Assembly: GCA_963755915.1 (NCBI GenBank)
Contig: CAVWLP010000002.1
Coordinates: 4,000,001-4,064,000, forward strand
DNA length: 64,000 nucleotides
Source of the DNA: an uncultured Phycisphaerales bacterium
GTDB taxonomy: Bacteria > Planctomycetota > Phycisphaerae > Tepidisphaerales > Tepidisphaeraceae
Direction: 5' to 3'
The notes beneath the pieces were generated by a model, which was given only the letters and a program-made list of their open reading frames with translations, did no database searches and was not told the origin of the DNA. The position numbers and the translations under genes are program-made. Each line of letters begins with the position of its first letter. The stretch's first letter is position 1. Of the stretch, positions 7,601 through 63,113 are shown in pieces.

Positions 7601-7612
7601 ACGGAAGGGCCG

Positions 7613-8740: not shown

Positions 8741-8768
8741 TCGCATATAGCCTGAAAAATGCGGAAGA

Positions 8769-8808
8769 CCCCCACCCTAACCCTCCCCCGGAGTACCAGG
8801 GGAGGGGA
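8769..8808. repeat. Palindromic REP-like element, family E (CCCTCACCC..CCCTCTCCC..GGGAGAGGG type)
   Basis: cccccaccctaaccctcccccggagtaccaggggagggga; related copies at 27358, 34813 and 42331. Confidence 0.75.
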
Positions 8809-8841
8809 AAAAGGGTGAGACGCGATTGACTTGGAGATGAA

Positions 8842-25175: not shown

Positions 25176-25183
25176 GGGATCTC

Positions 25184-26274: not shown

Positions 26275-26485
26275 GTGCGATCCGCGGTGGTTAATGATCG
26301 GGGAGGATGATGTCGGACTCAACTCATTGGGGGGGAGGCGAAATCCTGGTCGAGATTGTCGGCGCGGAGGGTGATCGCTGAAAAGAGAAGAAGGGCGAGT
26401 GCGATAAATCCGGCGTATCTCACGTTTGCCATCCGCCACACTTGAGGGGCCAAGCTGGCTGCAGTGTAACGGGCGGCAAAGGGGG

Positions 26486-44820: not shown

Positions 44821-45939
44821 TTACCGAAGTCCCTGCGTGAAGGCGGTGGAGAGGTTGGACGGCCAGGAGTAGGTGCCGGGTTTTAAAATGAGAAGGGGGG
44901 CGGTTCTGCCGGCGGGCAGGAGGGCGACGACGCCGGGGGCGATTGTGGATTTGACTTGGAGGGTGGACCACTGGAGACGCTCGATGACGGCGGAGGCGGT
45001 GGCGCCGCCTTCGATGATGAGAGTTTGGACTGGATGGGCGGAGAGGAGCGGGGGGATGAGATCGGCGATGGCGGTGCGGATTTGGTCGGTGCGGGCGGAT
45101 GTGACGGGGGAGCGGGCGGCGATGAAGGCGTAGCCGGTGGTGCGAAGTTGGAGAAGGGCCTTGGGGGCGTCGAAGGGGAGGTCGCAGATGACGGCGCCGG
45201 CGGCGAGTTGTGCGACAAACTCGCGGCTGGGGGTGGAGGCGCTGCCGAAGATGACGATTGCGTTGAGCGGTGATGCGAAGGGTTCGGTGGGGATGGGTTG
45301 GAGGGCGAGGGATTGGAGCAGGGCGGCGAAGAAATCTGCGCCGCCGGCGAAAAGGGTTTGGGAATCTCGTTGGGTGGACCAGTGGCGGATTTCGGATGCG
45401 GTGGCGGCGGCGCCGATGGTGATTCCGCGCGGCAGGGGGGGCTGACCTGGAGGGAGGCATTCGACATCGAGCGTTTGTGCGGGGTCGAGGAGGCGGCAGA
45501 CTTCGGATGTCGGTGGTGGGTTTTCGAGATCGACGGCCACCGGGGAATGGTGCAGGGGGATGTGGTCGATCAGGTATTGGCCATTTTCGATGATGCGGTT
45601 GCGAGAGGGATTCTGGGGGACGAGCAGGGCGCGAGGGAATTTAAGCGATGCGATGGCGGCGAGGAGTTCGGCGGCGACGCAGCCACGGAGCATGGAGTCG
45701 GTTTTTTTATAGATGAGGCTGAAATCGGCGGGATCGACGGTGTTGAGAATCGATTTGATCCGCTCGGCGGCCGCGTGCGGCGGGAGAAGGCGTGAGTCGG
45801 TGTCGAAGATGAGAACGTCGGCGGGGGTTTGGGGGAATTCGCCGCGGTGGATTATCGCGGAGAGGCCGTGGGCGGTTGCGAGGCCACCGATTTCAGCGGC
45901 GCCGGTGAGGTCGTCGGCGATGACAAGGAGGGGTTTCAA
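44821..45939 (-). CDS. Four-carbon acid sugar kinase family (DUF1537, DtnK-like)
   Basis: VIADDLTGAAE, DTDSR, IYKKTDSMLRG, IEGGATA, ILKPG. Confidence 0.85.
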   Translation of the reverse strand: MKPLLVIADDLTGAAEIGGLATAHGLSAIIHRGEFPQTPADVLIFDTDSRLLPPHAAAERIKSILNTVDPADFSLIYKKTDSMLRGCVAAELLAAIASLKFPRALLVPQNPSRNRIIENGQYLIDHIPLHHSPVAVDLENPPPTSEVCRLLDPAQTLDVECLPPGQPPLPRGITIGAAATASEIRHWSTQRDSQTLFAGGADFFAALLQSLALQPIPTEPFASPLNAIVIFGSASTPSREFVAQLAAGAVICDLPFDAPKALLQLRTTGYAFIAARSPVTSARTDQIRTAIADLIPPLLSAHPVQTLIIEGGATASAVIERLQWSTLQVKSTIAPGVVALLPAGRTAPLLILKPGTYSWPSNLSTAFTQGLR

Positions 45940-46964
45940 CGGTTGGCGGCCATTTTCGCCGCATATTGAATGGCATCAAGGAGGCTGGCGTCGCTGGCGG
46001 TGCCTTTGCCGGCCTGGTCGAAGGCGGTGCCGTGATCGACAGAAACGCGGATGATGGGCAGGCCGAGGGAAACATTGACGCCGTTGACGCGTGCCCAGTG
46101 TGCGGCGGCGGGATCGAAGAGGAAGCCGCGGATTTTCGCGGGGATGTGGCCCTGGTCGTGATACATGGCGACGCAGATGTCGTAGAAGCCGGTGACGGCC
46201 TTGGCGAAAAATGTGTCGGGGGGCTCGGGGCCTTCGACTTTGATTCCGGCGGCCCGCGCGGCATCGATGGCGGGAATGATGTGCTCGCGTTCTTCGGTTC
46301 CGAAAAGGCCGCCGTCGCCGGCGTGGGGGTTGAGGCCGGCTACGCCGATGCGGGGGCTCTTGATGCCGAGGCGCAGACAGGCTTCGTGGGCGAGCTTGAT
46401 GACGCTGAGGACGCGCTCCTTGGTGATGGCGTTGCAGGCGTCGCGAAGCGAGACGTGGGTGGAGACGTGGACGACGCGAAAATTGTCGGCCGCGAGCATC
46501 ATGGTGAAATTTTGGGTCTTGGTGAAATGGGCGAAGATTTCGGTGTGGCCTGGAAAGTCGTGGCCGGCGAGGACGAGGGATTCTTTGTGAATCGGCGCGG
46601 TAACGGTGGCGTCGATATCGCCGGCGAGTGCGAGGGTGATCATCGTCTTGACGGCGCGGAAGGCGGCGTCGCCGGCCATCGCGGAAATTTCGCCGAGGCG
46701 AAGAGCGGATAAATCCGGGCCATCGATGGCGAGGACATCGATCACATCCGGTTTGAAATGGGTTTCGGATGGTTTGGCGATGGGGTTGATTGTTAGGTTG
46801 ACGCCCGCATAGGCGACAGCGTGTTTCATGATGGCGGGATCGCCGATGACGATCGGGCGGCAGAGCTGGTGCGTTGGCTGGCGCGAAAGAGCCATGGCGA
46901 TGATTTCCGGACCGATGCCGGCGGGATCGCCCATGCTAATTCCGATTTTGGGTGGTTGATTCAT
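45936..46964 (-). CDS. pdxA: PdxA family dehydrogenase (PdxA2, D-threonate-4-phosphate dehydrogenase-like)
   Basis: MGDPAGIGPE, TAPIHK, GHTE, GLNPHAGD, AMYHDQGHIP, RVSVDHGTAFD. Confidence 0.9.
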   Translation of the reverse strand: MNQPPKIGISMGDPAGIGPEIIAMALSRQPTHQLCRPIVIGDPAIMKHAVAYAGVNLTINPIAKPSETHFKPDVIDVLAIDGPDLSALRLGEISAMAGDAAFRAVKTMITLALAGDIDATVTAPIHKESLVLAGHDFPGHTEIFAHFTKTQNFTMMLAADNFRVVHVSTHVSLRDACNAITKERVLSVIKLAHEACLRLGIKSPRIGVAGLNPHAGDGGLFGTEEREHIIPAIDAARAAGIKVEGPEPPDTFFAKAVTGFYDICVAMYHDQGHIPAKIRGFLFDPAAAHWARVNGVNVSLGLPIIRVSVDHGTAFDQAGKGTASDASLLDAIQYAAKMAANR

Positions 46965-47929
46965 TTCAAAGGGCGCTGTTTTGGTGGGTTTGTTTGGAGG
47001 GCATCGGCGGAATTTGAATTCCCCACGGCAGCGCCGTGGGCGTTCACAGAGGAAACTGGGCCGGGAGCGTCGCCGTTTTGGTTGGTTAGAGGGGGGAGCA
47101 TGGTGCGGCCGCAGAGGCCGCGCTCTTCGAGCATTGCTTTGAGGGAAGCTAATCCGAGGCCCAGGGTGCGGCATTTGAGATATCGAGAGCAGAGGGCATC
47201 CGTTTGATTTTGCAGCTCTTCGACGGCGTCCCAGCGCTCTTCGGAGGCGGCGTCGAACAGGGCGCGATAGAGTTCCGGGGCGAGATTGGCGCCGCTGGGA
47301 ACGATGCCCGCGCCGCCGCGTTTGAGGCCGAGGAGGAACTGGGGGCTGTTGCCGATGAGGATGGGAAAACCGTCGCGACCACCGGTGAGGCGGAGGAGAT
47401 CGACGACGCGGGTGGGGTCGCCGGCGGACTCTTTCAGGGCGACGATGTTTTCGTGGCGGCGGAGGCGGTCGATTGCGGTGAGGGGAATGGTTTGATGCGT
47501 GGTGGACGGGATGTTGTAGAGAACCAGGGGAAGGGGAAGATCGTCGGCGAGGCGGACAAAGTAAGATTCGATCTGCTCGTTGGTGAGGGGAAAGTAACTG
47601 GGCACATGGGCGACAAGGACGTCGGCGCCGATTTGGGCGTAGGCTTTGGCGGCTTCGAGGGATTCCTGAAAGCAGTTGGCGGCGATGCCGGCGTAGACGG
47701 TGGCTTTTTTGTCGGCGGCGCGAACCGTGAACTCGACCAGACGCCGTTTTTCGGTGGGATGGATTGAGGCGGACTCGCCGGTGGTACCGAGGGCGAAGAT
47801 TCCGTGGACACCGCCGTTCACGAGGTGGGCGACGAGACGGTCAACCGCGGGTTTGTCGATGCGGCCGTCGGTGGTGAAGGGGCTGACCATGGGAACGACC
47901 AGTCCGTGGAGGGAAAGAGAAACGGGCAT
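46961..47929 (-). CDS. DHDPS/N-acetylneuraminate lyase family aldolase
   Basis: GIFALGTTGE, LVLYNIP, ALKES (Schiff-base Lys). Confidence 0.88.
   Translation of the reverse strand: MPVSLSLHGLVVPMVSPFTTDGRIDKPAVDRLVAHLVNGGVHGIFALGTTGESASIHPTEKRRLVEFTVRAADKKATVYAGIAANCFQESLEAAKAYAQIGADVLVAHVPSYFPLTNEQIESYFVRLADDLPLPLVLYNIPSTTHQTIPLTAIDRLRRHENIVALKESAGDPTRVVDLLRLTGGRDGFPILIGNSPQFLLGLKRGGAGIVPSGANLAPELYRALFDAASEERWDAVEELQNQTDALCSRYLKCRTLGLGLASLKAMLEERGLCGRTMLPPLTNQNGDAPGPVSSVNAHGAAVGNSNSADALQTNPPKQRPLK
47011..47046. repeat. REP-like palindrome family A inside the 3' end of the aldolase CDS
   Basis: aatttgaattccccacggcagcgccgtgggcgttca. Confidence 0.8.
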
Positions 47930-49962
47930 TACAGTGGGCTCCTTGAAAAGTCATAGTGGGTTTTAGAGGTTGCTTCATTCTGCTCTTGCTCGGTGGCGAT
48001 GATGCGCTCGGCGATGGCTTCCATCGCTGAAGCGGCGGCCCAGGCGTTGTAGCTCCACCAGGTGCTGGAGGCGGAGTTGTCGTCATGGTATCGCTCGACG
48101 AGAAGTCCGTCGCTGGGGCAGGTGCGCTCGGAAAGAACGCCGTAGGCGCCGTAGCCGGTGACGCGGGGGTAGAGTTCCATCGTGTTCATAAGCCAGGCGA
48201 TGCCGTCTTCGGCACGGTTGGCGTGATAGGCGTCGGCGGTTTTTCGGGCGAGGTAGTGAAGGTCTTCGGTGACGACGGTGCTCATGGGATGGATGTGGGG
48301 GTTGGAGACGGAAGTGATCGAGCCGCCGCAGGAATTCCAATCGCTGGCTTTGAGGGGCGGCGATTGGGGGCGGGTGCGGAATCCGTAGCGCCAGAGGTAT
48401 TCGTAGTGGGCGCCGTCCTGGAGCATGTCGAGATAGAGCGGATCGGCGGTGTGCGTGTGCATGAGGCGGGCGGCGCGGATGAAGGCGAGGTTTCCTTCGG
48501 AATCGACGCTTTTGAAAGTGTCCATCGGCGATCCCCAGCAGGCGAGATTTGTCACGAAGTGACGGTAGTAGTGTAGTGCGCGGGCGGCGGCGTCGCGATA
48601 GCGGGTGTTGCTGGTGAGCTTCCAGGCGTGAATGAGCGCGGGGGCGAACCAGCAACCGGCGAAGCCGTCCCAGTCGACGACCTTTTTTTCTGAGCTGCTG
48701 AAGATGTAACCGAAGGCGCCGTCGTCGCGCTGTAATTCGACGGCGGTGTCGAGTACGCGGAGGGCGACGTCAACCCAGCGGCGGCAGTGGGGGGTGTCCG
48801 CGGGGAAGGGGTTTGAAGCGGCGCGAAGAAGATAATAGGCGGCGTGGGCGTTGGTGTAGGCGCAATGGTTGCCCTGGGTTTGAGGTAAGAAACCTGACCA
48901 CCAGCCGTTGATTTCGGATGCGTTCCAATCTTTGGGGCGGTTGTGGGTGAAGCGATTGAGAGTGGTGTCGTTGAGGAAGCCGGAGGACTCGTTGAAGCCG
49001 GTTGCGATCTCGTTGAAGATTTGGGCTGAATCTTTGGGAAGTTTTAGATCGGGGAAGAGGCGCTCGGCGAGCTGGAAGGGGTAGGCGAGGACGGTGCCTC
49101 CGGTCCAGCCGATTTCGACGATGGCGCGCCAGGGTTCGAGATTGAGGTCAACCGGGACGCGGCATTTTCGGTTGGTGTACTGCTGAAGCTCGGGGGAAAA
49201 GTTGATTTTTGCGAAGGCGTCGGCGAGGGCGCGCAGGGCGTCGCGAAACGAGCGGGAGAATTGCGGAATGCTGCGCATCTCCTCGTAGATGGCGCGGATG
49301 ATTCGGTGGGCGGCGAGGCGCCCGGCGCCGGGCACGGCGAATATTTTTCCTGTTGCACCGGCGCGATGGGTAAGATCGGCCGTGGCGGGGGCGAAATGCG
49401 TTTTTTCGACAAAGGTTAGCGGGTCATTTCCGTAGCCCAGGGCGACGCCGAAGCGATCGGGGAGGGCGGCGAAGAGGCCGTTGCGGATGAAGCCGTCGTC
49501 GGCGTTGCCGGAGGGGGAATAGGGGTCGATGGAAATTCCAACCGCTCCGCGCTGGCAGCAGAGGATTGAGACGGGATGAGAAGCGCGATCGGCGCGGAAT
49601 TCCCAGAGGGGGGCGCAATTTCGCTCGGCGGGGCGGGCGCCGGTGAGGCAGGGGAATTCGCCGGGACGGACGAAGGGGGCGTTGTTGTCGCCGTGGATGT
49701 TTCCGGGGATGAGATGGAAGAGGTCGGATTCATCCAGCAGCCGGGCTTGGAGGCGGATGCGGGTTTTGAAGTGGGATTTGAAGTTGAGGGAGTATTCCAA
49801 ATGGTCGTGTTCGCGATCGACGTGGAACCGGCCCTCGATGCCTTTGTGGTTGAAAACGTCTCCATCGGCGCCGGGCGCAGGGGGAGATCCATCCAACTTC
49901 CCTGCTGGAAGGCGGTGAGCGACAGTTGGAGCGCGAAATCGTTCAGGTGGACGACCATACAA
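47929..49962 (-). CDS. Hypothetical protein, possible (alpha/alpha)-barrel glycosidase-like (5' end probably frameshifted)
   Basis: Long ORF translationally coupled to the aldolase; Trp/Asp/Glu-rich helical C-terminal half (EIGWTGG, DTFKSVDSEG, WWSYNAW). Confidence 0.6.
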   Translation of the reverse strand: MYGRPPERFRAPTVAHRLPAGKLDGSPPAPGADGDVFNHKGIEGRFHVDREHDHLEYSLNFKSHFKTRIRLQARLLDESDLFHLIPGNIHGDNNAPFVRPGEFPCLTGARPAERNCAPLWEFRADRASHPVSILCCQRGAVGISIDPYSPSGNADDGFIRNGLFAALPDRFGVALGYGNDPLTFVEKTHFAPATADLTHRAGATGKIFAVPGAGRLAAHRIIRAIYEEMRSIPQFSRSFRDALRALADAFAKINFSPELQQYTNRKCRVPVDLNLEPWRAIVEIGWTGGTVLAYPFQLAERLFPDLKLPKDSAQIFNEIATGFNESSGFLNDTTLNRFTHNRPKDWNASEINGWWSGFLPQTQGNHCAYTNAHAAYYLLRAASNPFPADTPHCRRWVDVALRVLDTAVELQRDDGAFGYIFSSSEKKVVDWDGFAGCWFAPALIHAWKLTSNTRYRDAAARALHYYRHFVTNLACWGSPMDTFKSVDSEGNLAFIRAARLMHTHTADPLYLDMLQDGAHYEYLWRYGFRTRPQSPPLKASDWNSCGGSITSVSNPHIHPMSTVVTEDLHYLARKTADAYHANRAEDGIAWLMNTMELYPRVTGYGAYGVLSERTCPSDGLLVERYHDDNSASSTWWSYNAWAAASAMEAIAERIIATEQEQNEATSKTHYDFSRSPL

Positions 49963-50121
49963 CTAATTGATAGCGGGATGAATCGCGACGCCCAAAAGTT
50001 AATCTGCGGGTGGCGAAGGGCCTAGAACAATCTAGCGTAATTGTTTTGCAGATTTGCGCACTTGCGGATATAGGGTAAGAAAGTGGGCCGATAAGGGCCG
50101 AAATCGCGGAAATAAGGGAAT

Positions 50122-50145
50122 GGTGGGCGAATTCGCCCACCCTAC
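50122..50145 (-). repeat. GTAG-type REP palindrome
   Basis: Reverse complement GTAG-GGTGGGCGAATTCGCCCACC, perfect hairpin. Confidence 0.75.
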
Positions 50146-50152
50146 GTTGGGT

Positions 50153-52503
50153 ATGCGAGAGCGTCTATCTCTGGACCACAATTGGAGGTTTGCGTTGGGG
50201 CATGCGGGTTGCGCGGCGCGGGACTTTGGGTTTGCGGCCAGCCGGTGCCTGGTCAAAGCGGGCGAGGCTCGTGGTGCCGCCGGACGGGAATTCGATGACT
50301 CGCGCTGGCGGCGGGTGGATGTGCCGCATGATTGGGCGATCGAGTTGCCGTTCGATTCTAAGGGAGATAAGGAGCTGGCGGAGCATGGATTTCGGGCTAT
50401 CGGGCCGGCGCATCCTGAGAATAGCGTGGGATGGTATCGCCGGAAATTCCCGGTTCCGAAAGGCGACCTCGGGCGGCGCATCGGGATTGAATTTGATGGA
50501 GTGTTTCGAAATAGCATTGTGTGGGTGAACGGATTCCGGCTGGGACGCCACGAGAGCGGATATACGAGCTTTCGATATGACGTGACGGATGTAGTGGAAT
50601 ATGGGGGCGAAAATGTTGTTGCCGTTCGCGTCGATGCGACCGACTGGGAGGGGTGGTGGTATGAGGGGGCGGGGATTTATCGTCATGTCTGGCTGGTTAA
50701 AACCGATCCGCTTCATGTTGCGCCGAGTGGAACTTTTGTGAGCAGCAAAATTGTCCGGGGGGCCGCGACGGTTACGGTGCGAACGCGGGTGGTTAACGAT
50801 GGGGAGGAGAGTGCAAAGTTCGACTTAACGTCGCGCATCCGCGATGCCGGCGGGGCGGTAGTCAAAGTCGGCAAAGGCCGGGGCGTACGGCTCGCGCCTG
50901 GGGACGGTGCGGAATTGGTGCATCAATTGCGAATCGATAATCCGCGGCTTTGGTCGTGCGATGCTCCGAATTTGTATGAACTGGAAAGCGTGATAAGCGA
51001 CGGGCGGCGGACGCGGGATTCATACGTGACGACGTTTGGGATTCGGACGCTGCGATGGGATGCCAAGCGCGGATTTTTCCTCAACGGGAAGGGGCTGAAG
51101 ATCAAAGGGACGTGCAATCACCAGCAATATGCCGGAGTGGGGATCGCCGTGCCGGACCGGGTTCATGAGCTGCGGGTTGAAAAGCTGAAGGAAATGGGGT
51201 CGAACGCGTATCGCTGCTCGCATTATGCGGCGACGCGGGAACTGCTCGATTTTTGCGATCGTAACGGGTTGCTGGTGATGGCGGAAAACCGCCTGGCGGG
51301 TGGGGGGCAGGAGGCGCTGGGGGAATTCGAGAGCATGATTCTGCGGGACCGAAATCATCCCAGCATTATTTTGTGGTCGATCGCAAACGAGGAGCACACG
51401 ATTCAGTGGTCGGCCAGGGGGGAGCGAATCGCCCGGGCGATGGTGAAATTGGCGCACCGCCTGGATCCGACGCGGAAGGTTACGGCGGCGATGCACGACA
51501 GGGGGCTTGGGGAGGGATTTGCGAATGTCGTGGACGTTCATGGATGGAACTACATCAACGTGGGGAATATTGAGGCGTTCCACCGCCGGCGGCCGGAGCA
51601 GCCGATCGTCGGCAGCGAAGAGGGAAGCACTGTATGCACGCGGGGGATTTATGCCGACGATCCGGGCGCGGTTATGTGAGCGCCTACGATGTTCGCGCTC
51701 CGAAATGGGGTTCGACGGCGGAGAACTGGTGGACGTTTGTGGCAAAACGTCCGTGGATCGCAGGGGGGTTCGTGTGGACGGGGTTCGATTATTTTGGCGA
51801 ACCGATTCCCTACCAATGGCCATGCACGGGCTCGCATTTCGGGCTGATGGACATGTGCGGATTTCCGAAAGACAATTATTATTACTTCAAGTCCTGGTGG
51901 AGCCGGGAGACGGTTTTGCATCTTTTTCCGCACTGGAACTGGCGAGGGAAAGAGAAGCGGATGATCGACGTACGGTGTTTCAGCAACTGTGATGAGGTGG
52001 AATTGCTACTCAATGGCACGAGTCTGGGAAGAAAGCGGATGGGGCGAAACTCTCATCTGGTTTGGCCCGTGGCTTATGCGCCTGGGGTGCTGGAGGCGCG
52101 AGGCTTTCGCGATGGAAAGCGTGTTGCCACGACGAGAAATGAGACCAGCGGTGCCGCGGCGAGGATCGTGCTTGAGGCTGATCGCCACGCGATTCGCGCC
52201 GATGGGGAGGATGTCGTGGCAGTGACGGCAGCAGCGGTCGATGCGAAGGGACGAACGGTTCCAACCGCTCAAAACCTGGTTCGATTTGATATTTCGGGGG
52301 CGGGGCGGTTGCTGGGCGTGGGCAATGGGGATCCGAGCAATCACGAATCGGTTAAGGAGCCACAGTGCCGATTGTTCAATGGCCGATGTATGGCATTGAT
52401 CGGCGCGGAAACGAAGGCGGGGAGGCTGCGCGTGCGCGGCCAGTCGGTCGGGCTGGAAGAATCGGTTGTGGAAGTGCAATTGGCGCCGGGCGCAGGAAAG
52501 TGA
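50153..52503 (+). CDS. GH2 beta-galactosidase (GalA-like; frameshift near 51668)
   Basis: VPHDWAIE, GWYRRKF, WWYEGAGIYR, RDRNHPSIILWSIANEE, FVWTGFDYFGEP, GVGNGDP. Confidence 0.88.
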
Positions 52504-52507
52504 TTCT

Positions 52508-53740
52508 ATGACGGCGAAGCCGAGTCGAACGCGCAAGGAAGGCCAGGCAAAGACAGGATTAACGGCGAAACTGCCGCGGCGGTTTCCAAGCGTCGCCCTG
52601 CTGGTGGAAACGACGCGGTCCTACGGGCGGGATTTGTTGCGCGGCATCAATGATTACGCGCAAATCCGGGGTCCGTGGCTGTTTCATTTGCCGAACGACA
52701 TACCGATTCTGGGGATACCACCGGCGGACGAATGGCGGGGCGACGGGATCATCGCGCAGCCGAGGCAGAACAAGGAATTCGTCCGGCAATTGGTTGAAGT
52801 GGGGATTCCGGTGGTGACGCTGTCGGGTCCGCCGGGGACGGGCGGGCTGCCGGCCGTGCGGGGAAATCACAACGCGGTGGCGGACCTGGCAATGGCGCAT
52901 TTCCGCGACCGGGGATTCGTGCGCTTTGCATATTGCGGAGCGCCGAACGAATGGGATTGGCCCCCGACGGGGAAGAATTTTCAGCGTCTGGCCGAAGAGG
53001 TGGGGATGCAATGCGAGATTTACCATCCACGGGAAGATCCCGGGAGCCATACGCTGCAAATCGCTTCGCTTGGCGAGTGGCTGAAATCGCTGCGGAAGCC
53101 GGTGGGGCTGCTGGCGTCGAACGATAACCGGGCGCGGGAAGTTTTGGACGCGTGCAGATCGGAGGGGATTTTCGTGCCCGAAGAGGTGGCGGTGCTGGGC
53201 GTGAATGACGACGAATTGATTTGCGAGCTTGCCAACCCGCCGCTGTCGAGCGTGATCCATAATGCGCGGCGGATTGGGTACGAGGCGGCGGCGATGCTCG
53301 ACCAGCTTATGTCTGGCAAGACGGTGACGAACGATGTGATTATGGATCCGCTGGGCGTACATGCGAGAAAATCGACCGATTTGCTGGCGATCGAAGATCC
53401 GGAAGTCGCCAAAGCGGTGCGGTTTATCCGCGAGCATGCTTGCGACGGGATTCGCGTTGAGAATGTTCTGGAAGAAGTGGCGATGTCGCGGCGATCGTTT
53501 GAGAAGCGGTTCCGGCAGGCGCTGGGACGGCCGCCGCACATGGAGATTCGGCGGGTGCAGTTGGAAAGGGTGAGGCAACTGCTGGTGGGAAGCGATTTTA
53601 AGCTGCAAAAAATCGCGGAAGCGGCGGGATTTTCGTCGGCGCAATATCTGGCCGGGCTTTTTCATCAAACGATGGGGATGACGCCGGGGGCGTGGCGGCA
53701 GGCGGGGCGGTCGAGTGGGTCGAAGAGCGGCGAGAAATAA
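52508..53740 (+). CDS. XylR-type regulator (periplasmic-binding-protein fold + AraC HTH)
   Basis: VALLVETTRSYGRDLLRGI, VPEEVAVLGVNDD, PPLSSV, ARKSTD, SRRSFEKRF, GFSSAQY. Confidence 0.9.
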   Translation: MTAKPSRTRKEGQAKTGLTAKLPRRFPSVALLVETTRSYGRDLLRGINDYAQIRGPWLFHLPNDIPILGIPPADEWRGDGIIAQPRQNKEFVRQLVEVGIPVVTLSGPPGTGGLPAVRGNHNAVADLAMAHFRDRGFVRFAYCGAPNEWDWPPTGKNFQRLAEEVGMQCEIYHPREDPGSHTLQIASLGEWLKSLRKPVGLLASNDNRAREVLDACRSEGIFVPEEVAVLGVNDDELICELANPPLSSVIHNARRIGYEAAAMLDQLMSGKTVTNDVIMDPLGVHARKSTDLLAIEDPEVAKAVRFIREHACDGIRVENVLEEVAMSRRSFEKRFRQALGRPPHMEIRRVQLERVRQLLVGSDFKLQKIAEAAGFSSAQYLAGLFHQTMGMTPGAWRQAGRSSGSKSGEK

Positions 53741-53766: not shown

Positions 53767-55794
53767 ATGCTAGATCTGGATGAATCCCCCGTATCGATTG
53801 AAGAGCAGAAACCCGCCGTCACGCTGCGCAGCGTGTTGCTGGGGTTGATCGCGGTGGTGGTGGTATGCGCGGTCACCCCGTTCAACGATTACGTGCTTTC
53901 GAATACCAGCCTGAGCGCGGGGTTTATGCCGCTGGGGATGGTGCTGATTCTGTTTGTGCTGGTGGTGGGGATAAACGGGACGCTGCACCGCTGGTTTCCG
54001 CGGCGGGCGCTGGGTACGGGAGAACTGGCGATCATCGTGCTGATGACGCTGGTCGCGTGCAGTTTGCCGAATTGGGGAATGATGCGGTTTCTGGTGCCGA
54101 TGCCGGTGACGGCGTTTCACATGGGTGCGCGGGACGAGCTTTTCTGGAACGCGTTTACGGGGATGAATCTGCCGAAATGGTTGTTTCCGGTGGCGGACAT
54201 CCAAAGCGGGCGTACGAGTCCGATCGTTCAGTGGTTCTTTAATCGGGTGCCGGCGGGGTCGGCGATTCCGTATCGGGCGTGGTTGATTCCGCTGGCGGGG
54301 TGGGGTGTGTTTGCGGGGGCGATGATGTTGACGCTGGGATCGCTGGCGCGGCTGGTGCTCGACCAGTGGGCCCTGAATGAACGATTGCCGTTTCCGATCG
54401 CCCAGGTGCAGACGGCGCTGATCGAGGCTCCCGAACCGGGATTTGCGCTCAACAGGCTGTTTCGCGATCCCGTCCTCTGGATCGGGCTGTGCGGGGTGCT
54501 CGGGATTCAACTGCTTTCGATCCTCAACACTTATTTTCCCAGGCATGTTCCGGTGGTGTCGCTGAAGTTTGACCTCAGCGGGATTCTGTCGGAAGAGCCG
54601 TTTATTTATTTACGGCCGCGGCTGAAAAAATCGTTCCTGTCGTTCACGGTGGTGGGAATGACGTATTTTATCCGGTCGCGGGCGGCGTTCAGCTTGTGGG
54701 CGACGTTTGTGGTGCTGAACCTCATCGATATGGAACAGGGGATGAGACAGGCGGATATTTCGCCGGCGGCTTACGCGGACCAGCATCTGGGCGCGTGCGT
54801 GGCGTTCGTTCTGGGGATCGCATGGGTGGGCAGGCATTACTGGCTGCGCGTGCTGCGAAATGCGTTTGGCGGCGGGGGTAATCGGGGGGGTGATCGAAGC
54901 GGGCGGGCTTCGTTCTGGCTGGCGTGTATTGGGATTGCAACGATGCTGGGGTGGTTGTCGATTGTGGGGACGCATTTTTTTATGGCAGTGATGATCGTTG
55001 GTTTTATTGTCATGGGGCAATTGGTTGTGGCCCGGGTGGTGGCGGAGACGGGGATGACGTTTTTCCGGACCAGCGCGGTATCGTCGCAGATTTACACGAA
55101 TACGCCGGCCAAGTGGTATAACACGAACGACATTTATTTTGGGGGCGTTTTCACGCTGCTTGGGGCTTATGCGACGCGCGAGGGGCTGACGACGTTGGCG
55201 ACGACCGGTCTTGTGGTCTGCAAGAACGCGGGCGTGGGGGTGCGAAATCCACGGCGGATTGGGTGGGTGATTGCGCTGGCGCTGGGGGTGGGGTTTGCGG
55301 TGGCGGCTTGTACCACGCTCTGGTGCCAGTATTCGTATCCGACGCCGGCGGCGCAAACGGCGATACCGCAGCGGAATTATTTTGGGGCCGAGGCGTTTCC
55401 GCAGCGGGAGATTGGGGCGGGGGTCGATCAGTTCGGCAAGGGGCGTTTCGCGCCGAAGGAATATAATTCGCCGCTGCATATGGGGATTGGGTTTGGGGTG
55501 ACGGCGCTGCTGGAGGGGGCATCACTGCGATGGGCGAGTTGGCCGTTTTTGCCGGTGGGGTTTGTGGCGAGCTATGGGACGCCCATTGGGGATGCTTGGT
55601 TCAGCATTTTCGTGGGTTGGCTGGCGCAGTTGCTGATCGTGCGTTTCGGCGGTGCCCGCTTCTATCAACGGGCGAAGCCATTTTTCATTGGACTTATTTT
55701 TGGGGAGGGTTTGGCGGCGGGAATCTGGATCATCGTGAATGCTTTGATTGTGCTCAACGGCGGGGCGTCGCAAAGCGTGAAGTTTATTATGTAG
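53767..55794 (+). CDS. DUF6785/DUF6784 family multipass membrane protein (OPT-related)
   Basis: VTLRSVLLG, QWALNERLPFPIAQV, ARVVAETG, KPFFIGLIFGE; many TM segments. Confidence 0.75.
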   Translation: MLDLDESPVSIEEQKPAVTLRSVLLGLIAVVVVCAVTPFNDYVLSNTSLSAGFMPLGMVLILFVLVVGINGTLHRWFPRRALGTGELAIIVLMTLVACSLPNWGMMRFLVPMPVTAFHMGARDELFWNAFTGMNLPKWLFPVADIQSGRTSPIVQWFFNRVPAGSAIPYRAWLIPLAGWGVFAGAMMLTLGSLARLVLDQWALNERLPFPIAQVQTALIEAPEPGFALNRLFRDPVLWIGLCGVLGIQLLSILNTYFPRHVPVVSLKFDLSGILSEEPFIYLRPRLKKSFLSFTVVGMTYFIRSRAAFSLWATFVVLNLIDMEQGMRQADISPAAYADQHLGACVAFVLGIAWVGRHYWLRVLRNAFGGGGNRGGDRSGRASFWLACIGIATMLGWLSIVGTHFFMAVMIVGFIVMGQLVVARVVAETGMTFFRTSAVSSQIYTNTPAKWYNTNDIYFGGVFTLLGAYATREGLTTLATTGLVVCKNAGVGVRNPRRIGWVIALALGVGFAVAACTTLWCQYSYPTPAAQTAIPQRNYFGAEAFPQREIGAGVDQFGKGRFAPKEYNSPLHMGIGFGVTALLEGASLRWASWPFLPVGFVASYGTPIGDAWFSIFVGWLAQLLIVRFGGARFYQRAKPFFIGLIFGEGLAAGIWIIVNALIVLNGGASQSVKFIM

Positions 55795-56776
55795 AGCGAA
55801 GGTCGGCGCTGGTGGCGAGGGCAATGGCGCGGCCGCGATTTCCGACCGCGCAGTAGAAGTGATAGACAATCCCCTTCCAATGGACGAGCCAGGGTTTATG
55901 AGCGAAGGTGGCGTCCCACGGCTCCGACGGCTCGACGAGATGGGGGCCATGCCATCGGGTCCAGTTCACCAGATCGTGGGAGCAGGCGAACGTGTCGAAA
56001 GCTTTGGGCTTCCAGACATGGCCGAAATAGAACATGACCCAGAGGTCGCCGATGCGGACGACCTGGGGATCGCCGGAGATTCCGCGTGGGCCGTTGTCGA
56101 TGACGGGGCCGGGGCCGTGGCGCTTCCAGTGGGTCATGTCGTCGGAGAGGGCCATGCCGATGCGCTCCGTGCCGGGTCCCTGCTGTTTTGCGTTGTAGAA
56201 CATCACGAAAGGGGAGCCCAGGGATTTGGAGGGGTCCTGGATGATGTTGCTTTTGTAGAGGGTGGCTTTTTCGAAGGGGCGGGCGTCGGGATCGCCGGGG
56301 CCGAGGACGGGGTTATTGCTTAAGCGCGTGCATTCCTGCGCCGCCGAGGGATCTTGCGTCCAGGCGATGCCGATGGAGAGGGGATCGGGTTCATAGCCTG
56401 GCAGAGCGCCGCCGATGTAACTGAGCCAATATCTGCCGTCGAATTGGTGTAGAGCATGGTCGCCGTCCCATTGAACATCGGCCAGGGCGATGCCGCCGTC
56501 GGCCTGGCAATGGTCCCAGCCGTCCTCGCGGAAGGAGAGGATTTTTCCCAGCGGCTGCCAATTCAGGAGATTGTCGCTGACGGCAAGGTGGGTCTCGTAG
56601 CCGATTTTGTCGGTGTTGGCGACGTAAACCATAAACCAGCGGTTTTCAAAACGAAAAACGCTGGGGCAGTCGTAGAGGGATCCTTGCGGGGGCTGGAGGA
56701 CGATTCCATATTTGAACGGGGTTTTTGTTTGATCGTATATGACCTGCATCAAATCGGGGGCGACTTCGTTTTGCAT
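55787..56776 (-). CDS. GH137-like beta-L-arabinofuranosidase (5-bladed propeller)
   Basis: KTPFKYG..DCPSVFR..GYETH..YKS..PFVMFYNA..ERIG..GD..VMFYF..AHK..VYHFYCAV; matches the BT0996 N-terminal domain as recalled. Confidence 0.8.
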   Translation of the reverse strand: MQNEVAPDLMQVIYDQTKTPFKYGIVLQPPQGSLYDCPSVFRFENRWFMVYVANTDKIGYETHLAVSDNLLNWQPLGKILSFREDGWDHCQADGGIALADVQWDGDHALHQFDGRYWLSYIGGALPGYEPDPLSIGIAWTQDPSAAQECTRLSNNPVLGPGDPDARPFEKATLYKSNIIQDPSKSLGSPFVMFYNAKQQGPGTERIGMALSDDMTHWKRHGPGPVIDNGPRGISGDPQVVRIGDLWVMFYFGHVWKPKAFDTFACSHDLVNWTRWHGPHLVEPSEPWDATFAHKPWLVHWKGIVYHFYCAVGNRGRAIALATSADLRST

Positions 56777-58979: not shown

Positions 58980-60725
58980 TCATGGTGACCCACGATTGCC
59001 AGAGGCTTGATCGGGGCCAGCTGGAATGATGCTGAGGTTGGAAATACGGAAGGAGAATCTGCGGGCGGGGTGGTCGGTACCGGGTGGAACGGGTTTGGCG
59101 CCGCCGATGCCGCGCCAGGTCCCGGTGCGGAAGGAAAGGCGGTGCAGGGGGGCGGGGGATTCGGCGAAGGGGGCATCGGGCAGGATGGTGGCGCCGTTGA
59201 TTGAAACCGAGAAACGGCCGCGATCGGCGTCGGCCTCGATTTGAAAATGGGCGAACTTTGCGCCGAGGAGTGAGGGGTTGATGTTTCCGTCATTGGCGAT
59301 TCTGAGCCGGACCAATCGTCGGGAACCAAACTTGCTGAGCAGATCGATTTCGAGGGCGCCGTCGTCAGTGCGATCAATTTCAAGATCGAAAGTGACGGTG
59401 ATTCTTGCCGACTCGGCAAACACGCGGGTCGCCTGGGCGTAGTCGTAAGGATCTTCATTCGTCAGTCGCAGGACGCCTGCGGCGATTTCGACGGAGGACC
59501 AGTTTGGCCGGTAGATATTCCAGCCGGGAATAAATGGGCCCGGGGGGAAGCTGCTGAAATCGTCGTTGACGGTTGCCGTTTCCTGGGAGTTTAGGGGCAG
59601 AGGAACCCGGCTTACCCAGATGTCCTCCTTATTCATGCTGTAGGTCAGCCACATCGCGTTGTCATTGCGCGAGCCGTCGTCGGCCCAGTGTGAAATGCCG
59701 CGGACGTATTGGGGGCCGATGCTGCGGTGCAGGCCGGCGTAGCGCTGGATGGGGAGTTCGCCCTGGATGATGCGCATGTCGGCGAAGTTGACGCCGTCGG
59801 AGCTGGTGACGGCTACAAGGGGGTATCGGCTCGATTTCGACGGGTTAAAGACCAACACGTAGCGGCCGTCGCGGGTGCGCTGGGACCAGACTTTGGCTTT
59901 GCCGGTGATGAGCGACGCCGGGACGCTGGGCTGCGACCAGGTTTTTCCGTCGTCCGTGGAGGCCGTGACCCAGCCCATCTTGCTGATGCCGACCCAGGCG
60001 TTGTCGGCGCGGCGGAAGAAGGAGAAGGCTTTGCCGCAGACCCATTTTTCGTTTTCGCCCGGGACCGCGCCACCGGGCCAGGCGGCGGGGTCGTGCCACT
60101 TCATGCGGCGTGGGCCTAGCAAGCGGCCGCGATCCTGTTGTTCTAAGAACATGCGGTCGGCCAGAAGTTCCCGGCAGGCTTGTTTGAAGGCGTCGTCGCT
60201 GGAGGTGTCGAAGCGCGGGGCGGGCAGTTTGATGGACTGCGAGGCCTGGAGGGTGAAGACGTCGGCGAGGGAATGATCGGGCCGGATTTCGCGGACGACC
60301 AGGGCGCTTTTGCGGTCTTCGCTGGTTTCCTGCTGGTCCGTGCGCAGGCCGGCGATTGCCAGCATGCGGTCGTTGGATGCGCGGTAGAAATACATGCGCA
60401 GGCAGGTCGAGATGCCCTGGGGAAAAAGTTCCACTGGGTCGGTCCAGCCGGAGCCGTCCGTGGAGGTGCTATATAGTTCACGCGAAGGCCAGACATCTTC
60501 ATCGCGCTGGCAGGAGTTCCACCCGACGTAGAGGCGGCCTTTCCAGCAGGCCATGTCGACGTGATGGTGATAGGTCCAGCCGAGTTGGTCGGTTAGGTCG
60601 GGAACGTCGGAGGAGGCGCGGAAGATCTGGAAGGAATGGACGCCGGGCATTGGGGGAAGGCCGCCGTCGGGGAGGGTTGGATTGAGGAGCGATTGCTCGC
60701 GGCCGTGAATCTGCAGAACGTCCAT
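58980..60725 (-). CDS. GH143-like DHA (3-deoxy-D-lyxo-heptulosaric acid) hydrolase
   Basis: GWTYHH, VVREI, AKVWSQRT.DG, RYPL, GPQYVRGI, YSMNKEDIWVSRVP, WNIY, DPYDYA, FRTG; matches the BT1020 N-terminal domain as recalled. Confidence 0.8.
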   Translation of the reverse strand: MDVLQIHGREQSLLNPTLPDGGLPPMPGVHSFQIFRASSDVPDLTDQLGWTYHHHVDMACWKGRLYVGWNSCQRDEDVWPSRELYSTSTDGSGWTDPVELFPQGISTCLRMYFYRASNDRMLAIAGLRTDQQETSEDRKSALVVREIRPDHSLADVFTLQASQSIKLPAPRFDTSSDDAFKQACRELLADRMFLEQQDRGRLLGPRRMKWHDPAAWPGGAVPGENEKWVCGKAFSFFRRADNAWVGISKMGWVTASTDDGKTWSQPSVPASLITGKAKVWSQRTRDGRYVLVFNPSKSSRYPLVAVTSSDGVNFADMRIIQGELPIQRYAGLHRSIGPQYVRGISHWADDGSRNDNAMWLTYSMNKEDIWVSRVPLPLNSQETATVNDDFSSFPPGPFIPGWNIYRPNWSSVEIAAGVLRLTNEDPYDYAQATRVFAESARITVTFDLEIDRTDDGALEIDLLSKFGSRRLVRLRIANDGNINPSLLGAKFAHFQIEADADRGRFSVSINGATILPDAPFAESPAPLHRLSFRTGTWRGIGGAKPVPPGTDHPARRFSFRISNLSIIPAGPDQASGNRGSP

Positions 60726-60728
60726 GGT

Positions 60729-63113
60729 TTATCCCTGAAGATGAAGCTGGCCGTCAATTTTGTAGGAATTGCCGGGGGTGGTTTGCAGCGACAGTTCATG
60801 CCCGGCGCTGCGAATCAGGCAGGGGGTTCCGAACTTTGAGCGGACGACGGCCGAAACAAGTTTTCCATCGCTCCAGGTCATATCAACTTCAAAACCTCCG
60901 CGGGCACAAAGCCCGGTGACGGAACCGGAAGGCCAGGCCTTGGGCAGGGCCGGAAGGAGGTCGATTTGAATGACATTCGGCTGGCCGGGGGGGTGCAGGT
61001 GGCTTTGGATAAGCATTTCGGCGATGCCGGCGGTGGCGCCGAAATTTCCGTCGACCTGGAAGGGGCCGCACTTGTCGAATAAATCGGAGAATGTTCGCTT
61101 GGCCAACTGAAGCGAGAGCTGGCGATAGGACATCTCGCCGTCATCGACGCGCGCCCAGAGGGGAATTCGCCAGGCGTAGGACCAGCCGGTGCTGCCGTCG
61201 CCGCGCCATTTTAAAAGGACCTTGGCGGCATCAAGAACGGTGGAATTTTCCGGCGTAAATTCGGAGCCTGGATAGAGGCCCCACAGGGGGGACATGTGGC
61301 GATGATTGTTGTTGGGCTTGTCGATGTCGTCCTGCCATTCCTGGAGCTGGCCATATTTGCCGATTTTGTCGGGGGCTAATTTCTCGCGAATGGATGCGAG
61401 TTGCTCGGCGAAGTCTTGATCGACGTTCAAAATATTTGAAGCTGCGATGGTGGAACCGAACAGGGCGCGGATCAACTGCATGTCCATCGCGGGGCCGGCG
61501 CAAAGGGTGCCTTCTTCGGGTGAAAACGATGGGCAGGTGACGAGGTAGCCGGTGGTCGGGTCTTTCACGAGTGAATCGACAAAAAACAGGGCGGCGCCCT
61601 TCATGGATGGATAAGCCACGGTTGCGAGGAATTTGGCGTCGCCGGTGAAGAGATAGTGTTGCCAGAGATGGCTGCAAAGCCAGGCGCCGCCGGTGGGCCA
61701 GATTCCGTCGATGTTGTTGATGGGGGCGGCGCCGCGCCAGATGTCGGTGTTGTGGTGAACGACCCAGCCGCGGGCGTGATAGAGATCGTGGGCGGTGCGG
61801 GCGCCGCTGATGGATAGATCGTTGATCATGTCGAAAAGCGGGCTCGCGCACTCGCTTAGGTTGGTCACTTCCGCGGGCCAGTAATTCATCTCGACGTTGA
61901 TGTTGGTGGTGTACTTGCTTTCCCATGGGGGATTGAGCAGTTCGTTCCAGACGCCTTGCAGATTCGCCGGCTGGGTTCCCGGGCGGCTGCTGGAAATGAG
62001 CATGTAGCGGCCAAACTGGAAGAAGAGTGCCGCCAGGGCGGGGTCGCGATCCAGCCCGGAGCTGCCGAGATGCTCGGGGGCTGGCGCATCCTTGGATTCG
62101 TTGCCGGTGTCGGCGGAAGCAACGACGCGCTTCAGGCGCTGATCGGTTGGGAGGTCGGCGATATCCGTATGACCAAGATCGAACGTGACACGGTCGAACA
62201 GCGACCTGAAGTCCGCGACGTGAGCGTCGCGCAGACTTTCGTACGATCTGCCCTGAAGTTTGGCGAGCATCTCATCGCAACGCTGCGCGGGATCGGCGCT
62301 GATGTCCTGGAAATTCCTGAAGCTGGTCGCGGCCACGAGTAAAAGTGTCGCGGTATCGGCGTTTTGAATGAGAATGCTGTTTCCCGCGACGGTGAGGCGG
62401 CCGCCGGTGTTTATCACCCGCAGGCGAGACTCGAAGCGCAGGCCCAATTCGAAGGGGGCTACGAGGTCGCGAACTTGGCCGGTCATTTTCAGCGTGCCTG
62501 GGGAGATGGCCGTCGTTTGGGAGATCTTGTGGGGGCTATCCATCGTCGCCGTGAAATTCAGGGTTCCGGGCTGGTTGGTGGAGAGATGAATGACGATGAC
62601 GTTGTCGGGATAGCTGGCGAAAACCGCGCGTTGAAAAAAAATGCCCGCGGCGCGATAGGAGGTGCGGGCGATGGCGGTATCGAGATCGAGTTGGCGGCGA
62701 TAGCCGGTGACTGCGGTCTGGCCCGGGAAATGCAGGTGAATATCGCCGAAGGGTTGATAGGCTTTTTGGCGGACGGGATCGCTGAGGAATTTCTTGCGGG
62801 CCAGGTCGGCGGCCTCGTTGACCTTGCCGGTGAAGACCAGTTGGCGAATCTCGGGAAGCACGTCGCCTGCGCCGGCGCGGTCGTAATTGTGGGGCTGGCC
62901 GGTCCAGAGGGTGTCTTCGTTGAACTGGATTCGTTCATCGGGGACGCCGCCGAAGACCATTGCGCCGAGGCGTCCGCTGCCGATGGGGAGGGCATCTTCC
63001 CAGGCGACGGCGGGCTGCTGATACCAGAGAGAGAGCGAATCACAGGAAGCGGCAAACAGCGGGGCCGTGGCCAGCAGGAAAACGATCGCGGCAAAGTGGA
63101 GGCTTCTGCTCAT
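60729..63113 (-). CDS. GH95 alpha-L-fucosidase/alpha-L-galactosidase
   Basis: ALPIGSGRLGAM, FNEDTLW, GRYMLISSSR, NINVEMNYW, HHNTDIW, HRHMSPL, FQVDGNFG. Confidence 0.92.
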   Translation of the reverse strand: MSRSLHFAAIVFLLATAPLFAASCDSLSLWYQQPAVAWEDALPIGSGRLGAMVFGGVPDERIQFNEDTLWTGQPHNYDRAGAGDVLPEIRQLVFTGKVNEAADLARKKFLSDPVRQKAYQPFGDIHLHFPGQTAVTGYRRQLDLDTAIARTSYRAAGIFFQRAVFASYPDNVIVIHLSTNQPGTLNFTATMDSPHKISQTTAISPGTLKMTGQVRDLVAPFELGLRFESRLRVINTGGRLTVAGNSILIQNADTATLLLVAATSFRNFQDISADPAQRCDEMLAKLQGRSYESLRDAHVADFRSLFDRVTFDLGHTDIADLPTDQRLKRVVASADTGNESKDAPAPEHLGSSGLDRDPALAALFFQFGRYMLISSSRPGTQPANLQGVWNELLNPPWESKYTTNINVEMNYWPAEVTNLSECASPLFDMINDLSISGARTAHDLYHARGWVVHHNTDIWRGAAPINNIDGIWPTGGAWLCSHLWQHYLFTGDAKFLATVAYPSMKGAALFFVDSLVKDPTTGYLVTCPSFSPEEGTLCAGPAMDMQLIRALFGSTIAASNILNVDQDFAEQLASIREKLAPDKIGKYGQLQEWQDDIDKPNNNHRHMSPLWGLYPGSEFTPENSTVLDAAKVLLKWRGDGSTGWSYAWRIPLWARVDDGEMSYRQLSLQLAKRTFSDLFDKCGPFQVDGNFGATAGIAEMLIQSHLHPPGQPNVIQIDLLPALPKAWPSGSVTGLCARGGFEVDMTWSDGKLVSAVVRSKFGTPCLIRSAGHELSLQTTPGNSYKIDGQLHLQG

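Follow-up and report, generated by a model that had tools for sequence, protein, structure and literature searches.

The stretch of DNA considered here, referred to throughout as the window, comprises 64,000 nucleotides (G000:C2:4000001-4064000) of a three-contig genome of 6.6 Mb, 81% complete, from an uncultured Phycisphaerales bacterium. On its minus strand it harbors a compact cassette that encodes an aldolase of the dihydrodipicolinate synthase/N-acetylneuraminate lyase (DHDPS/NAL) family, a PdxA2-type dehydrogenase and a DUF1537 kinase. This cassette probably mediates the breakdown of 3-deoxy-D-lyxo-heptulosarate (DHA, also written Dha), a rare acidic plant-cell-wall sugar found in side chain D of the pectin rhamnogalacturonan-II (RG-II), by the successive action of the aldolase, a reductase, a D-threonate kinase and PdxA2. 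The reading was put forward in a preliminary description of the window, and is supported by the conservation of the cassette, by the reductase that accompanies it in most genomes, by its linkage to the glycoside hydrolase families GH143 and GH142, and by a convergent gene set in Escherichia coli, all of which is comparative genomics and not biochemistry. The glycosidases that dismantle RG-II are known, and a four-enzyme route to pyruvate and dihydroxyacetone phosphate (DHAP) would close the gap on the fate of DHA. The preliminary description knew of no DHA catabolic pathway, and none was found in the full-text literature, represented mostly by titles and the starts of abstracts and with subscription journals and supplements largely uncovered; the passages on Dha available from a 2026 preprint on RG-II are likewise silent on its catabolism.

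DHA carries a carboxylate at C1, a keto group at C2, a methylene at C3, hydroxyls in the D-lyxo arrangement at C4 to C6, and a second carboxylate at C7. DHA is freed from RG-II side chain D by GH143 and GH142 enzymes. In the proposed route, the DHDPS-family aldolase would then form a Schiff base at C2 and cleave between C3 and C4, giving pyruvate and D-threuronate (2,3-dihydroxy-4-oxobutanoate), the latter of which would be reduced to D-threonate by an NAD(P)H-dependent aldehyde reductase. In most genomes this role would fall to an iron-containing alcohol dehydrogenase (Fe-ADH) encoded upstream of the aldolase, and in the window genome to a reductase not linked to the trio. The DUF1537 kinase would generate 4-phospho-D-threonate, which the PdxA2-type enzyme would oxidize at C3 and decarboxylate to DHAP and CO2, such that the net outcome would be the conversion of DHA into pyruvate, DHAP and CO2. 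The claim that the stereochemistry of DHA leads to D-threonate was re-derived by hand and holds: C5 and C6 are placed left and right in the Fischer projection, which is D-threo, and as the threo arrangement is symmetric to end-swapping, reduction of the aldehyde would therefore give D-threonate. Among the RG-II keto-deoxy acids considered, a C7 keto-deoxy diacid alone would give all four enzymes a role; the cleavage of 3-deoxy-D-manno-octulosonate (Kdo) would give D-arabinose, and C6 keto-deoxy acids would give C3 aldehydes. For the final two steps, Zhang et al. reportedly described in PNAS in 2016 how DtnK, a DUF1537 protein, and PdxA2 convert D-threonate to DHAP and CO2. Family and PDB names agree with the conversion of 4-phospho-D-threonate to DHAP and CO2 by PdxA2, and the papers citing that study, in the parts available, cover the L-threonate/D-erythronate branch alone.

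The cassette is preceded by one further gene, and the four genes are arranged head to tail in the following order:

47929..49962, minus strand: 677-aa protein, first gene of the coupled string, modelled with a beta-sandwich ahead of an (alpha/alpha)6-type barrel.
46961..47929, minus strand: DHDPS/NAL-family class I aldolase, 322 aa, the proposed DHA aldolase (PF00701, E 1.5e-53).
45936..46964, minus strand: predicted PdxA2-type NAD-dependent oxidative decarboxylase, 342 aa (PF04166, E 3.1e-105).
44821..45939, minus strand: DUF1537 acid-sugar kinase, 372 aa, short and divergent, with a TTG start, the proposed D-threonate 4-kinase (PF07005, E 2.3e-28; PF17042, E 6.9e-09).

The preliminary description had the aldolase, pdxA and DUF1537 kinase genes as coupled; their open reading frames (ORFs) lie on the minus strand where it placed them, and their families are matched by profile. 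Read directly, the junctions overlap as TAATG between the 677-aa ORF and the aldolase, with AAGGAG found 9 nt upstream, as ATGA between the aldolase stop and the PdxA start, and as TTGA between the PdxA stop and the kinase start. The translationally coupled string is hence of four genes, not three, and, as had been stated, no reductase is found among them. PdxA in fact starts not at the listed 47174 but at the ATG at 46964, where both the family match and the relatives begin, and is 342 aa long. A consensus scan of the operon for promoters and terminators gave matches no more numerous than in shuffled sequence. The aldolase, the PdxA2-type gene and a kinase of the clade described below thus stand side by side on one strand, and all three ORFs are unbroken despite the many split genes elsewhere in the assembly.

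The aldolase is matched over the whole TIM barrel (PF00701, 181.9 bits, residues 7-285 against profile positions 2-275 of 289). K166, Y138 and G48-T49-T50-G51-E52 (GTTGE) show no variation in any of the 18 aligned relatives, and we take these to be the Schiff-base lysine, the catalytic tyrosine and the carboxylate-binding motif, respectively. A quick tree search places the protein in a clade of 18 rows, all of which are loci with the full trio. It does not pass the equivalog for dapA (TIGR00674, 157.4 against a cut-off of 206.15 bits) or those for NanA (NF003164, 109.6 against 281 bits; TIGR00683, 82.2 against 382 bits), and the cut-offs for 2-keto-3-deoxygluconate (KDG) aldolase and KdgD are likewise not reached. 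A search of plasmids with the aldolase returned nothing but paralogues, at 33.5% identity or less. Dehydratase/decarboxylase chemistry of the KdgD type was considered and rejected, since the distal carboxylate of DHA would stand one carbon further from the leaving hydroxyl than this chemistry allows, and since the kinase and PdxA2 would be left without a role.

The PdxA protein matches PF04166 over its full length (352.1 bits, profile positions 1-286 of 286). Among solved structures it scores best, at 280-288 bits, against 4jqp, 2hi1 (PdxA2) and 6e85 (D-threonate 4-phosphate dehydrogenase), while the PdxA1 structures score lower, at 181-198 bits, E. coli PdxA itself being at about 198. It is therefore closer to PdxA2 than to PdxA1, and has a DUF1537 kinase as its partner. 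An 11-residue insertion sets it apart from the solved enzymes, and it is 45% identical to a protein of E. coli CFT073 that bears the RefSeq name D-threonate 4-phosphate dehydrogenase. That the aldolase and PdxA should simply be the housekeeping enzymes DapA (lysine) and PdxA (vitamin B6) is so improbable that it can almost be set aside. The window PdxA does pass TIGR00557 (pdxA; 349 bits against a cut-off of 290), and JGI names homologues of the aldolase 4-hydroxy-tetrahydrodipicolinate synthase. However, the aldolase fails the dapA model (157 against 206 bits), a separate and true dapA at C2:4588329 passes it (in two frameshifted pieces, 227.1 and 110.7 bits), a second PdxA of housekeeping, PdxA1-like type is found at C2:2229573, and both cassette genes share a glycan-degradation locus with a DUF1537 kinase.

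In the kinase both domains are found in partial form, PF07005 (SBD_N) at 100 bits over positions 1-166 of 230 and PF17042 (NBD_C) at 36.9 bits over positions 84-160 of 168. Its best NCBIfam match is D-threonate kinase (NF047819, 100.8 bits), followed by 3-oxo-tetronate kinase, and D-threonate kinase is the top NCBIfam match in all 26 members of its clade. The motifs ADDxTGA, YKKxDS, EGGAT and KPGSY are conserved in 26 of 26 kinases, and the window protein retains all 30 invariant columns of the clade alignment. Judged by their profile scores, the three cassette proteins are relatives of characterized enzymes and not members of their equivalogs.

Beyond the window, 80 loci from other genomes were retrieved with the alignment of 18 aldolase homologues, together with up to 10 kb per side, and their content was determined by tblastn with the window and locus proteins, followed by clustering of all neighbouring ORFs. 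The aldolase, PdxA and kinase genes are found on one strand in 59 of the 80; among the 21 loci that do not have the full trio, 11 end at a contig edge within 3.3 kb. The carriers are distributed among the Planctomycetota, Verrucomicrobiota, Bacteroidota, Lentisphaerota, Ignavibacteriota, Balneolota and Chloroflexota, and include the cultured organisms Fontivita pretiosa, Flavobacterium daejeonense, F. pokkalii, Opitutaceae EW11 and a Catalimonadaceae strain. The nearest public relative of the window genome is an uncultured Phycisphaerales metagenome-assembled genome (locus L003), and the two aldolases are 96% identical.

The commonest extra neighbour of the trio is the Fe-ADH (PF00465/PF25137). 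The preliminary description had suggested looking for co-occurrence with an aldehyde reductase, and the Fe-ADH gene is indeed found directly upstream of the aldolase in 48 of the 57 trio loci whose sequence extends that far, always on the aldolase strand and with a gap of 110 nt or less in 47. The protein matches no equivalog, scoring at around half of the cut-offs, and the nearest models are those for ErcA, lactaldehyde reductase, choline dehydrogenase, 4-hydroxybutyrate dehydrogenase and sulfoacetaldehyde reductase; it is the predicted reductase that the proposed scheme had needed. A sodium:solute symporter (SSF) follows the cassette in 37 of the 59 trio loci, and a LacI regulator is found ahead of it in 20. 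In eight loci of a Verrucomicrobiota arrangement, here called the Opitutales type, the order is GH142, LacI, SSF, Fe-ADH, aldolase, kinase, PdxA, GH143 and GH2.

A number of variants are also found. A locus from a gammaproteobacterial metagenome-assembled genome (L033; 229-6143) encodes Fe-ADH, the aldolase, a semialdehyde-type aldehyde dehydrogenase and two enolase-superfamily dehydratases, without the kinase or PdxA. This may represent an oxidative branch via tartrate, a speculative assignment from one locus, and variants such as this fit an acid-aldehyde intermediate. L028 and L040 have only the aldolase, SSF and GH142. In six loci of the Calditrichota, KSB1 and Cytophagia (L026, L037, L051, L055, L061 and L065), aldolases of a nested clade follow a TonB-dependent receptor and a Por-tail protein, again without kinase or PdxA, and in L026 the aldolase precedes a BNR_2 sialidase-like gene; these aldolases may be lyases for another ulosonic acid. 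Several loci of the Bacteroidota and Ignavibacteriota (L031, L039, L044, L049, L053, L064 and others) have sulfatases and sulfatase-maturing enzymes of the formylglycine-generating type on the flanks of the cassette, a possible sign of a sulfated glycan, distinct from RG-II, that bears DHA. DHA also occurs in the scale and theca polymers of green algae.

A comparable set of enzymes appears to have been assembled independently in E. coli. In strain CFT073 (NC_004431, 738713-747692), an accessory island of around 9 kb beside glnS encodes a di/tricarboxylate-type permease of the CitMHS/SLC13 group, YhcH, a BNR_2 sialidase-family protein, TerC, a DHDPS-family protein and Fe-ADH, and, in divergent orientation, the RefSeq-named dtnK (D-threonate kinase), D-threonate 4-phosphate dehydrogenase and a DeoR regulator. 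Of 5426 complete E. coli genomes, 1049 carry the island, ATCC 25922 among them. It shares with the cassette the four enzyme families together with a sialidase-fold hydrolase, a permease and a regulator. In contrast to the cassette, it is non-orthologous (identity to the window proteins is 29% for the aldolase, 25% for the kinase and 45% for PdxA, and its Fe-ADH is 36% identical to that of L015), is split into two divergent operons, and has a BNR_2 (GH33-like) protein in place of GH143 and a CitMHS/SLC13 permease in place of SSF. By analogy, the island corroborates the logic of the cassette and not its substrate. A DNA-level search of E. coli genomes with the Fe-ADH and aldolase stretch of L033 gave no match.

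The route can be compared to several known systems. With the D-threonate pathway (DtnK and PdxA2; NF047819, NF002891; 6e85, 2hi1) it shares two families, adjacent and coupled, and the proposed end product, DHAP and CO2. It differs in that the window kinase belongs to a separate, shorter clade and both window proteins score far below the equivalog cut-offs, and in that D-threonate would be an internal intermediate, formed from a C7 diacid by two extra enzymes, and not a nutrient. In the D-glucarate/galactarate route, GarL, GarR and GarK act as aldolase, tartronate-semialdehyde reductase and glycerate kinase, and in HpaI-type cleavage 4-hydroxy-2-oxoheptanedioate is converted to pyruvate and succinic semialdehyde (NCBIfam TIGR02313). 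The logic is the same, in that a keto-deoxy diacid gives pyruvate and an acid-semialdehyde, which gives a hydroxy acid that is then phosphorylated. However, the cassette substrate would be one carbon longer than that of the glucarate route, the aldolase is of the class I DHDPS type in place of the class II HpcH type, and the C4 product would need an extra oxidative decarboxylation, by PdxA2, to reach a triose phosphate. In sialic acid catabolism, too, a sialidase-fold hydrolase frees a 2-keto-3-deoxy acid from which a DHDPS/NAL lyase, NanA, yields pyruvate, whereas the aldehyde product and the downstream enzymes are different and the window aldolase reaches only 82-110 bits with the NanA models, whose cut-offs are 281-382.

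The D-apionate pathway (OiaK with the RuBisCO-like protein OiaX) also employs a DUF1537 kinase for an RG-II-specific sugar. It differs from the cassette in being encoded separately in the window genome and in its kinase, with no match to the OiaK model NF042436 at E 1e-5 or better in any of the 26 clade kinases. A RuBisCO-like protein was not found among the scanned neighbour families that occur in at least three loci, several families having no Pfam match or being unscanned. The PdxA-like gene was also considered as the D-apionate oxidoisomerase ApnO and this was ruled out, since ApnO is, in the part of its paper available, topologically homologous to class I ketol-acid reductoisomerase; the word PdxA is absent from that text (PMC13753588).

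The nature of the substrate is best addressed through the hydrolases associated with the cassette. In BT1020 of Bacteroides thetaiotaomicron an N-terminal GH143 DHA hydrolase is joined to a C-terminal GH142 beta-L-arabinofuranosidase, and both act on RG-II side chain D, at L-Araf-beta-1,5-D-Dha, where Araf is arabinofuranose, according to the parts available of two sources (PMC13501991; bioRxiv 10.64898/2026.03.13.711244). The window itself contains a member of the first family:

58980..60725, minus strand: GH143-like sialidase-fold propeller, putative DHA-releasing hydrolase of side chain D (PF24067, the BT_1020-like propeller, 1.5e-35, 123 bits; PF22585; PF13088).

The preliminary description placed this gene 11 kb from the cassette, and the distance from the aldolase start is 11.05 kb. 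It is one of two GH143-like loci in the window genome, and its three-domain architecture recurs in the GH143 genes located after the cassette in loci of the Opitutales type. GH143 lies no more than 10 kb from the trio in 12 of 59 loci, GH142 in 11 and either of the two in 15, or in 12 of the 40 trio loci with full flanks. GH143 is the next gene after the cassette in the eight Opitutales-type loci, and L048 has a fused GH143-GH142 form.

The association is also seen at the level of whole genomes, where co-occurrence with GH143 had likewise been suggested as a check. PF24067 is found in 44 of 50 cassette genomes, compared to 9 of 301 and 15 of 351 genomes in two phylum samples; the 50 exclude nine further trio loci, three of which carry GH143 within the locus. 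In the sample of the window's own phylum (301 genomes) the clade kinase, at 400 bits or more, occurs in two and PF24067 in nine, and both cassette carriers, the window genome and G299, are positive. The GH143 match of G299 is alike in contig number, coordinates and score to that of G323, the genome of L029, such that G299 is probably one of the 50. In the Bacteroidota sample (351 genomes; kinase threshold 300 bits or more) the kinase is found in 5, PF24067 in 15 and both in 4, with a Fisher p of 1e-5, or 2e-4 without the seed genome, values that are inflated by the relatedness of the genomes.

A number of observations, set out in this and the following paragraphs, weigh against the proposed DHA route. 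The window PdxA falls below the equivalog for D-threonate 4-phosphate dehydrogenase (NF002891, 326.1 against 583 bits), and the kinase falls below that for D-threonate kinase (100.8 against 450 bits), with its N-terminal domain alone aligned. The biochemistry of DtnK and PdxA2 is taken here from family names, PDB names and what Zhang et al. 2016 reportedly found. The window GH143-like protein is a weak, divergent member of its family that matches in two stretches at 123 bits, while members from the Verrucomicrobiota and Bacteroidota reach 250-425 bits. Six of the 50 cassette genomes gave no PF24067 match, 11 of the 15 GH143-positive Bacteroidota genomes are without the cassette, and B. thetaiotaomicron has PF24067 but no PF07005.

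Enzymes for other RG-II chains adjoin the cassette as well, namely GH138-like proteins in four loci, rhamnosidases in five, GH95 in four and GH137 in three, and a BT0996-like GH2 is also present in the Opitutales-type loci; transketolase and fucose-isomerase-like genes, which at a guess are apiose genes, occur in a few. With such neighbours, the linkage is a better argument for an RG-II-derived sugar than for DHA; the former is firmly shown to be the cassette substrate, the latter less firmly. The cassette might thus act on a different acidic sugar of RG-II, aceric acid or Kdo, by chemistry new to these families, which we consider improbable. It does sit in RG-II loci at large, with GH138-like, GH95, GH137, GH127 and rhamnosidase neighbours, and the catabolism of both acids seems unsettled, a 2026 preprint, in the part available, treating secreted D-Kdo pathways in other gut microbes as unconfirmed. 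However, Kdo would lead to D-arabinose and leave a tetronate kinase and PdxA2 idle, aceric acid would not qualify as a 2-keto-3-deoxy acid, no RG-II-specific families adjoin the trio more often than GH143 and GH142 (15 of 59 loci), and the di/tricarboxylate-type permease of the E. coli analogue fits a diacid.

A further possibility is that two unrelated modules share the operon, with the aldolase and Fe-ADH acting on some other 2-keto-3-deoxy acid of pectin (Kdo, a KDG-type acid, or a fuconate or rhamnonate derivative), and the kinase and PdxA2 acting on imported D-threonate or D-erythronate. Many keto-deoxy acids lie within the range of the DHDPS family, the next-best NCBIfam models for the aldolase include NanA, KDG aldolase and KdgD, and the models nearest to Fe-ADH are of the lactaldehyde-reductase type. 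Ten aldolase loci with full flanks lack PdxA and the kinase, one such clade being found beside a BNR_2 sialidase-like gene. In spite of this, the arrangement seems unlikely to us. The four families travel together in at least seven phyla, their stops and starts overlap in the window, and the same four were independently assembled in E. coli. Among the RG-II keto-deoxy acids considered, only a C7 diacid would yield a C4 acid-aldehyde that puts each of the four enzymes to use, and by tblastn a sialidase-like gene of the Kdo-hydrolase type lies near the aldolase in 1 of the 80 loci, as against 12 for GH143.

Two components are missing from the window genome. The cassette Fe-ADH is absent from it and from L003, the best match in the window genome, at 37% identity, being on another contig, and the cassette-type symporter is absent from both, the best match being at 33% identity. 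It might then be supposed that the window lineage holds a decaying remnant, in which Fe-ADH and the symporter have been lost and the trio no longer works as a DHA pathway. Fe-ADH is present in the other 17 loci of the window's 18-row clade, no cassette-type SSF was found in the window genome, and no kinase of the clade is shorter than that of the window, which shares only 84% identity with its L003 counterpart, compared to 96% for the aldolase. Against this, the three ORFs are intact amid many split genes, every clade-invariant residue is retained and the translational coupling is preserved. Seven other trio loci are also without Fe-ADH, and nine such loci in several phyla imply that an unlinked reductase may be common; in addition, the genome is 81% complete. 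Decay is on balance improbable.

Taken at its widest, the proposal is that this would be the first catabolic route for DHA, a signature sugar of RG-II, that it extends over at least seven phyla with a second, non-orthologous assembly in about one fifth of complete E. coli genomes, that it provides a natural source of D-threonate, and that the 677-aa protein represents a new family of carbohydrate-active proteins whose target is a fragment bearing DHA; to this combination we would give an even chance. The four-enzyme route would by itself allow thousands of genes that at present bear the labels 'dihydrodipicolinate synthase' and 'PdxA' to be named correctly, and would help to tell RG-II degraders that retain DHA from those that may leave it to cross-feeders. 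A physiological source of D-threonate would also explain the retention of DtnK and PdxA2 in bacteria.

Other genes of the window locus include the following:

50054..52503, plus strand: GH2 beta-galactosidase-like gene in two ORFs (a probable assembly indel), divergent from the operon, identified by Pfam GH2 domains.
52466..53740, plus strand: XylR/AraC-type regulator, a candidate local regulator with a periplasmic-binding-protein-like sensor and a helix-turn-helix domain (PF13377, PF12833, PF22177).
53767-55794: DUF6785/DUF6784 protein of 675 aa, between the XylR-type regulator and the GH137-like gene, present in L003 at 94% identity.
55787-56776: GH137-like gene, matching the N-terminal part of NF049877.
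60729-63113: GH95 gene.
63122 to the end of the window: GH127 gene.
23844-26439: BNR_2 sialidase-like gene (218 bits, 5' part apparently frameshifted), directly upstream of a major facilitator superfamily (MFS) transporter gene.

The 677-aa protein has no sequence match in Pfam, NCBIfam or PDB. Homologues with 59-66% identity are found beside the cassette in seven other Phycisphaerae loci, L003 being the eighth. Its structure model has a predicted local distance difference test score (pLDDT) of 66.7 and a predicted template-modelling score (pTM) of 0.76. The top Foldseek matches of the model are cellobiose 2-epimerases (AGE-type), GH76 and a polysaccharide lyase, at a query-normalised TM of 0.38 or less, and its Atlas neighbours are mainly unnamed clusters, some labelled GH127 or GH76. 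The resemblance is loose, and the protein is probably a carbohydrate-active enzyme.

The two pieces of the divergent GH2 gene score 671.6 and 391.5 bits against NF041462 (GalA). This GH2 is conserved beside the cassette in L003, L012, L013, L015 and L067, and homologues of the regulator (37-98% identity) adjoin the cassette in the same five loci. The window locus contains two GH2 genes, and a GH142-like gene is found 4.5 kb past the window end; by gene content, the surroundings are an RG-II locus. The BNR_2 gene is 30% identical to the sialidase-family protein of the E. coli island, and together with the MFS transporter gene it forms a candidate hydrolase-plus-importer pair of the Kdo or DHA type.

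An OiaK-like kinase (NF042436, 334.6 bits) and an OiaX-like RuBisCO-like protein (NF042437, 453.6 bits) are encoded at C2:4089923-4092404, around 43 kb from the trio and 26-28 kb past the window end. Both score below cut-off, and the kinase is frameshifted. The pair adjoins GH2, GH78 and a GFO/IDH/MocA oxidoreductase, and looks like an apionate-type module by its profile matches, such that apiose would be served outside the trio. A further acid-sugar module is found within the window at 6869-10367, made up of successive genes for an RraA-like aldolase, an enolase-superfamily dehydratase and a protein resembling altronate/galactarate dehydratase.

Genes broken into two or three neighbouring ORFs include the GH2 (50054-52503), the OiaK-like kinase (C2:4089923-4091340), GH78, the second PdxA (C2:2229500-2230550) and dapA (C2:4588329-4589167), with C2:4096006-4098705 also among the split regions, and these probably reflect indel errors of long-read assembly. 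The GC skew is very strong across the window, G exceeding C on the plus strand in every 2-kb bin (+0.03 to +0.46) irrespective of gene orientation; over the whole genome, in 100-kb bins, it is patchy (-0.24 to +0.21) and without a single switch point.

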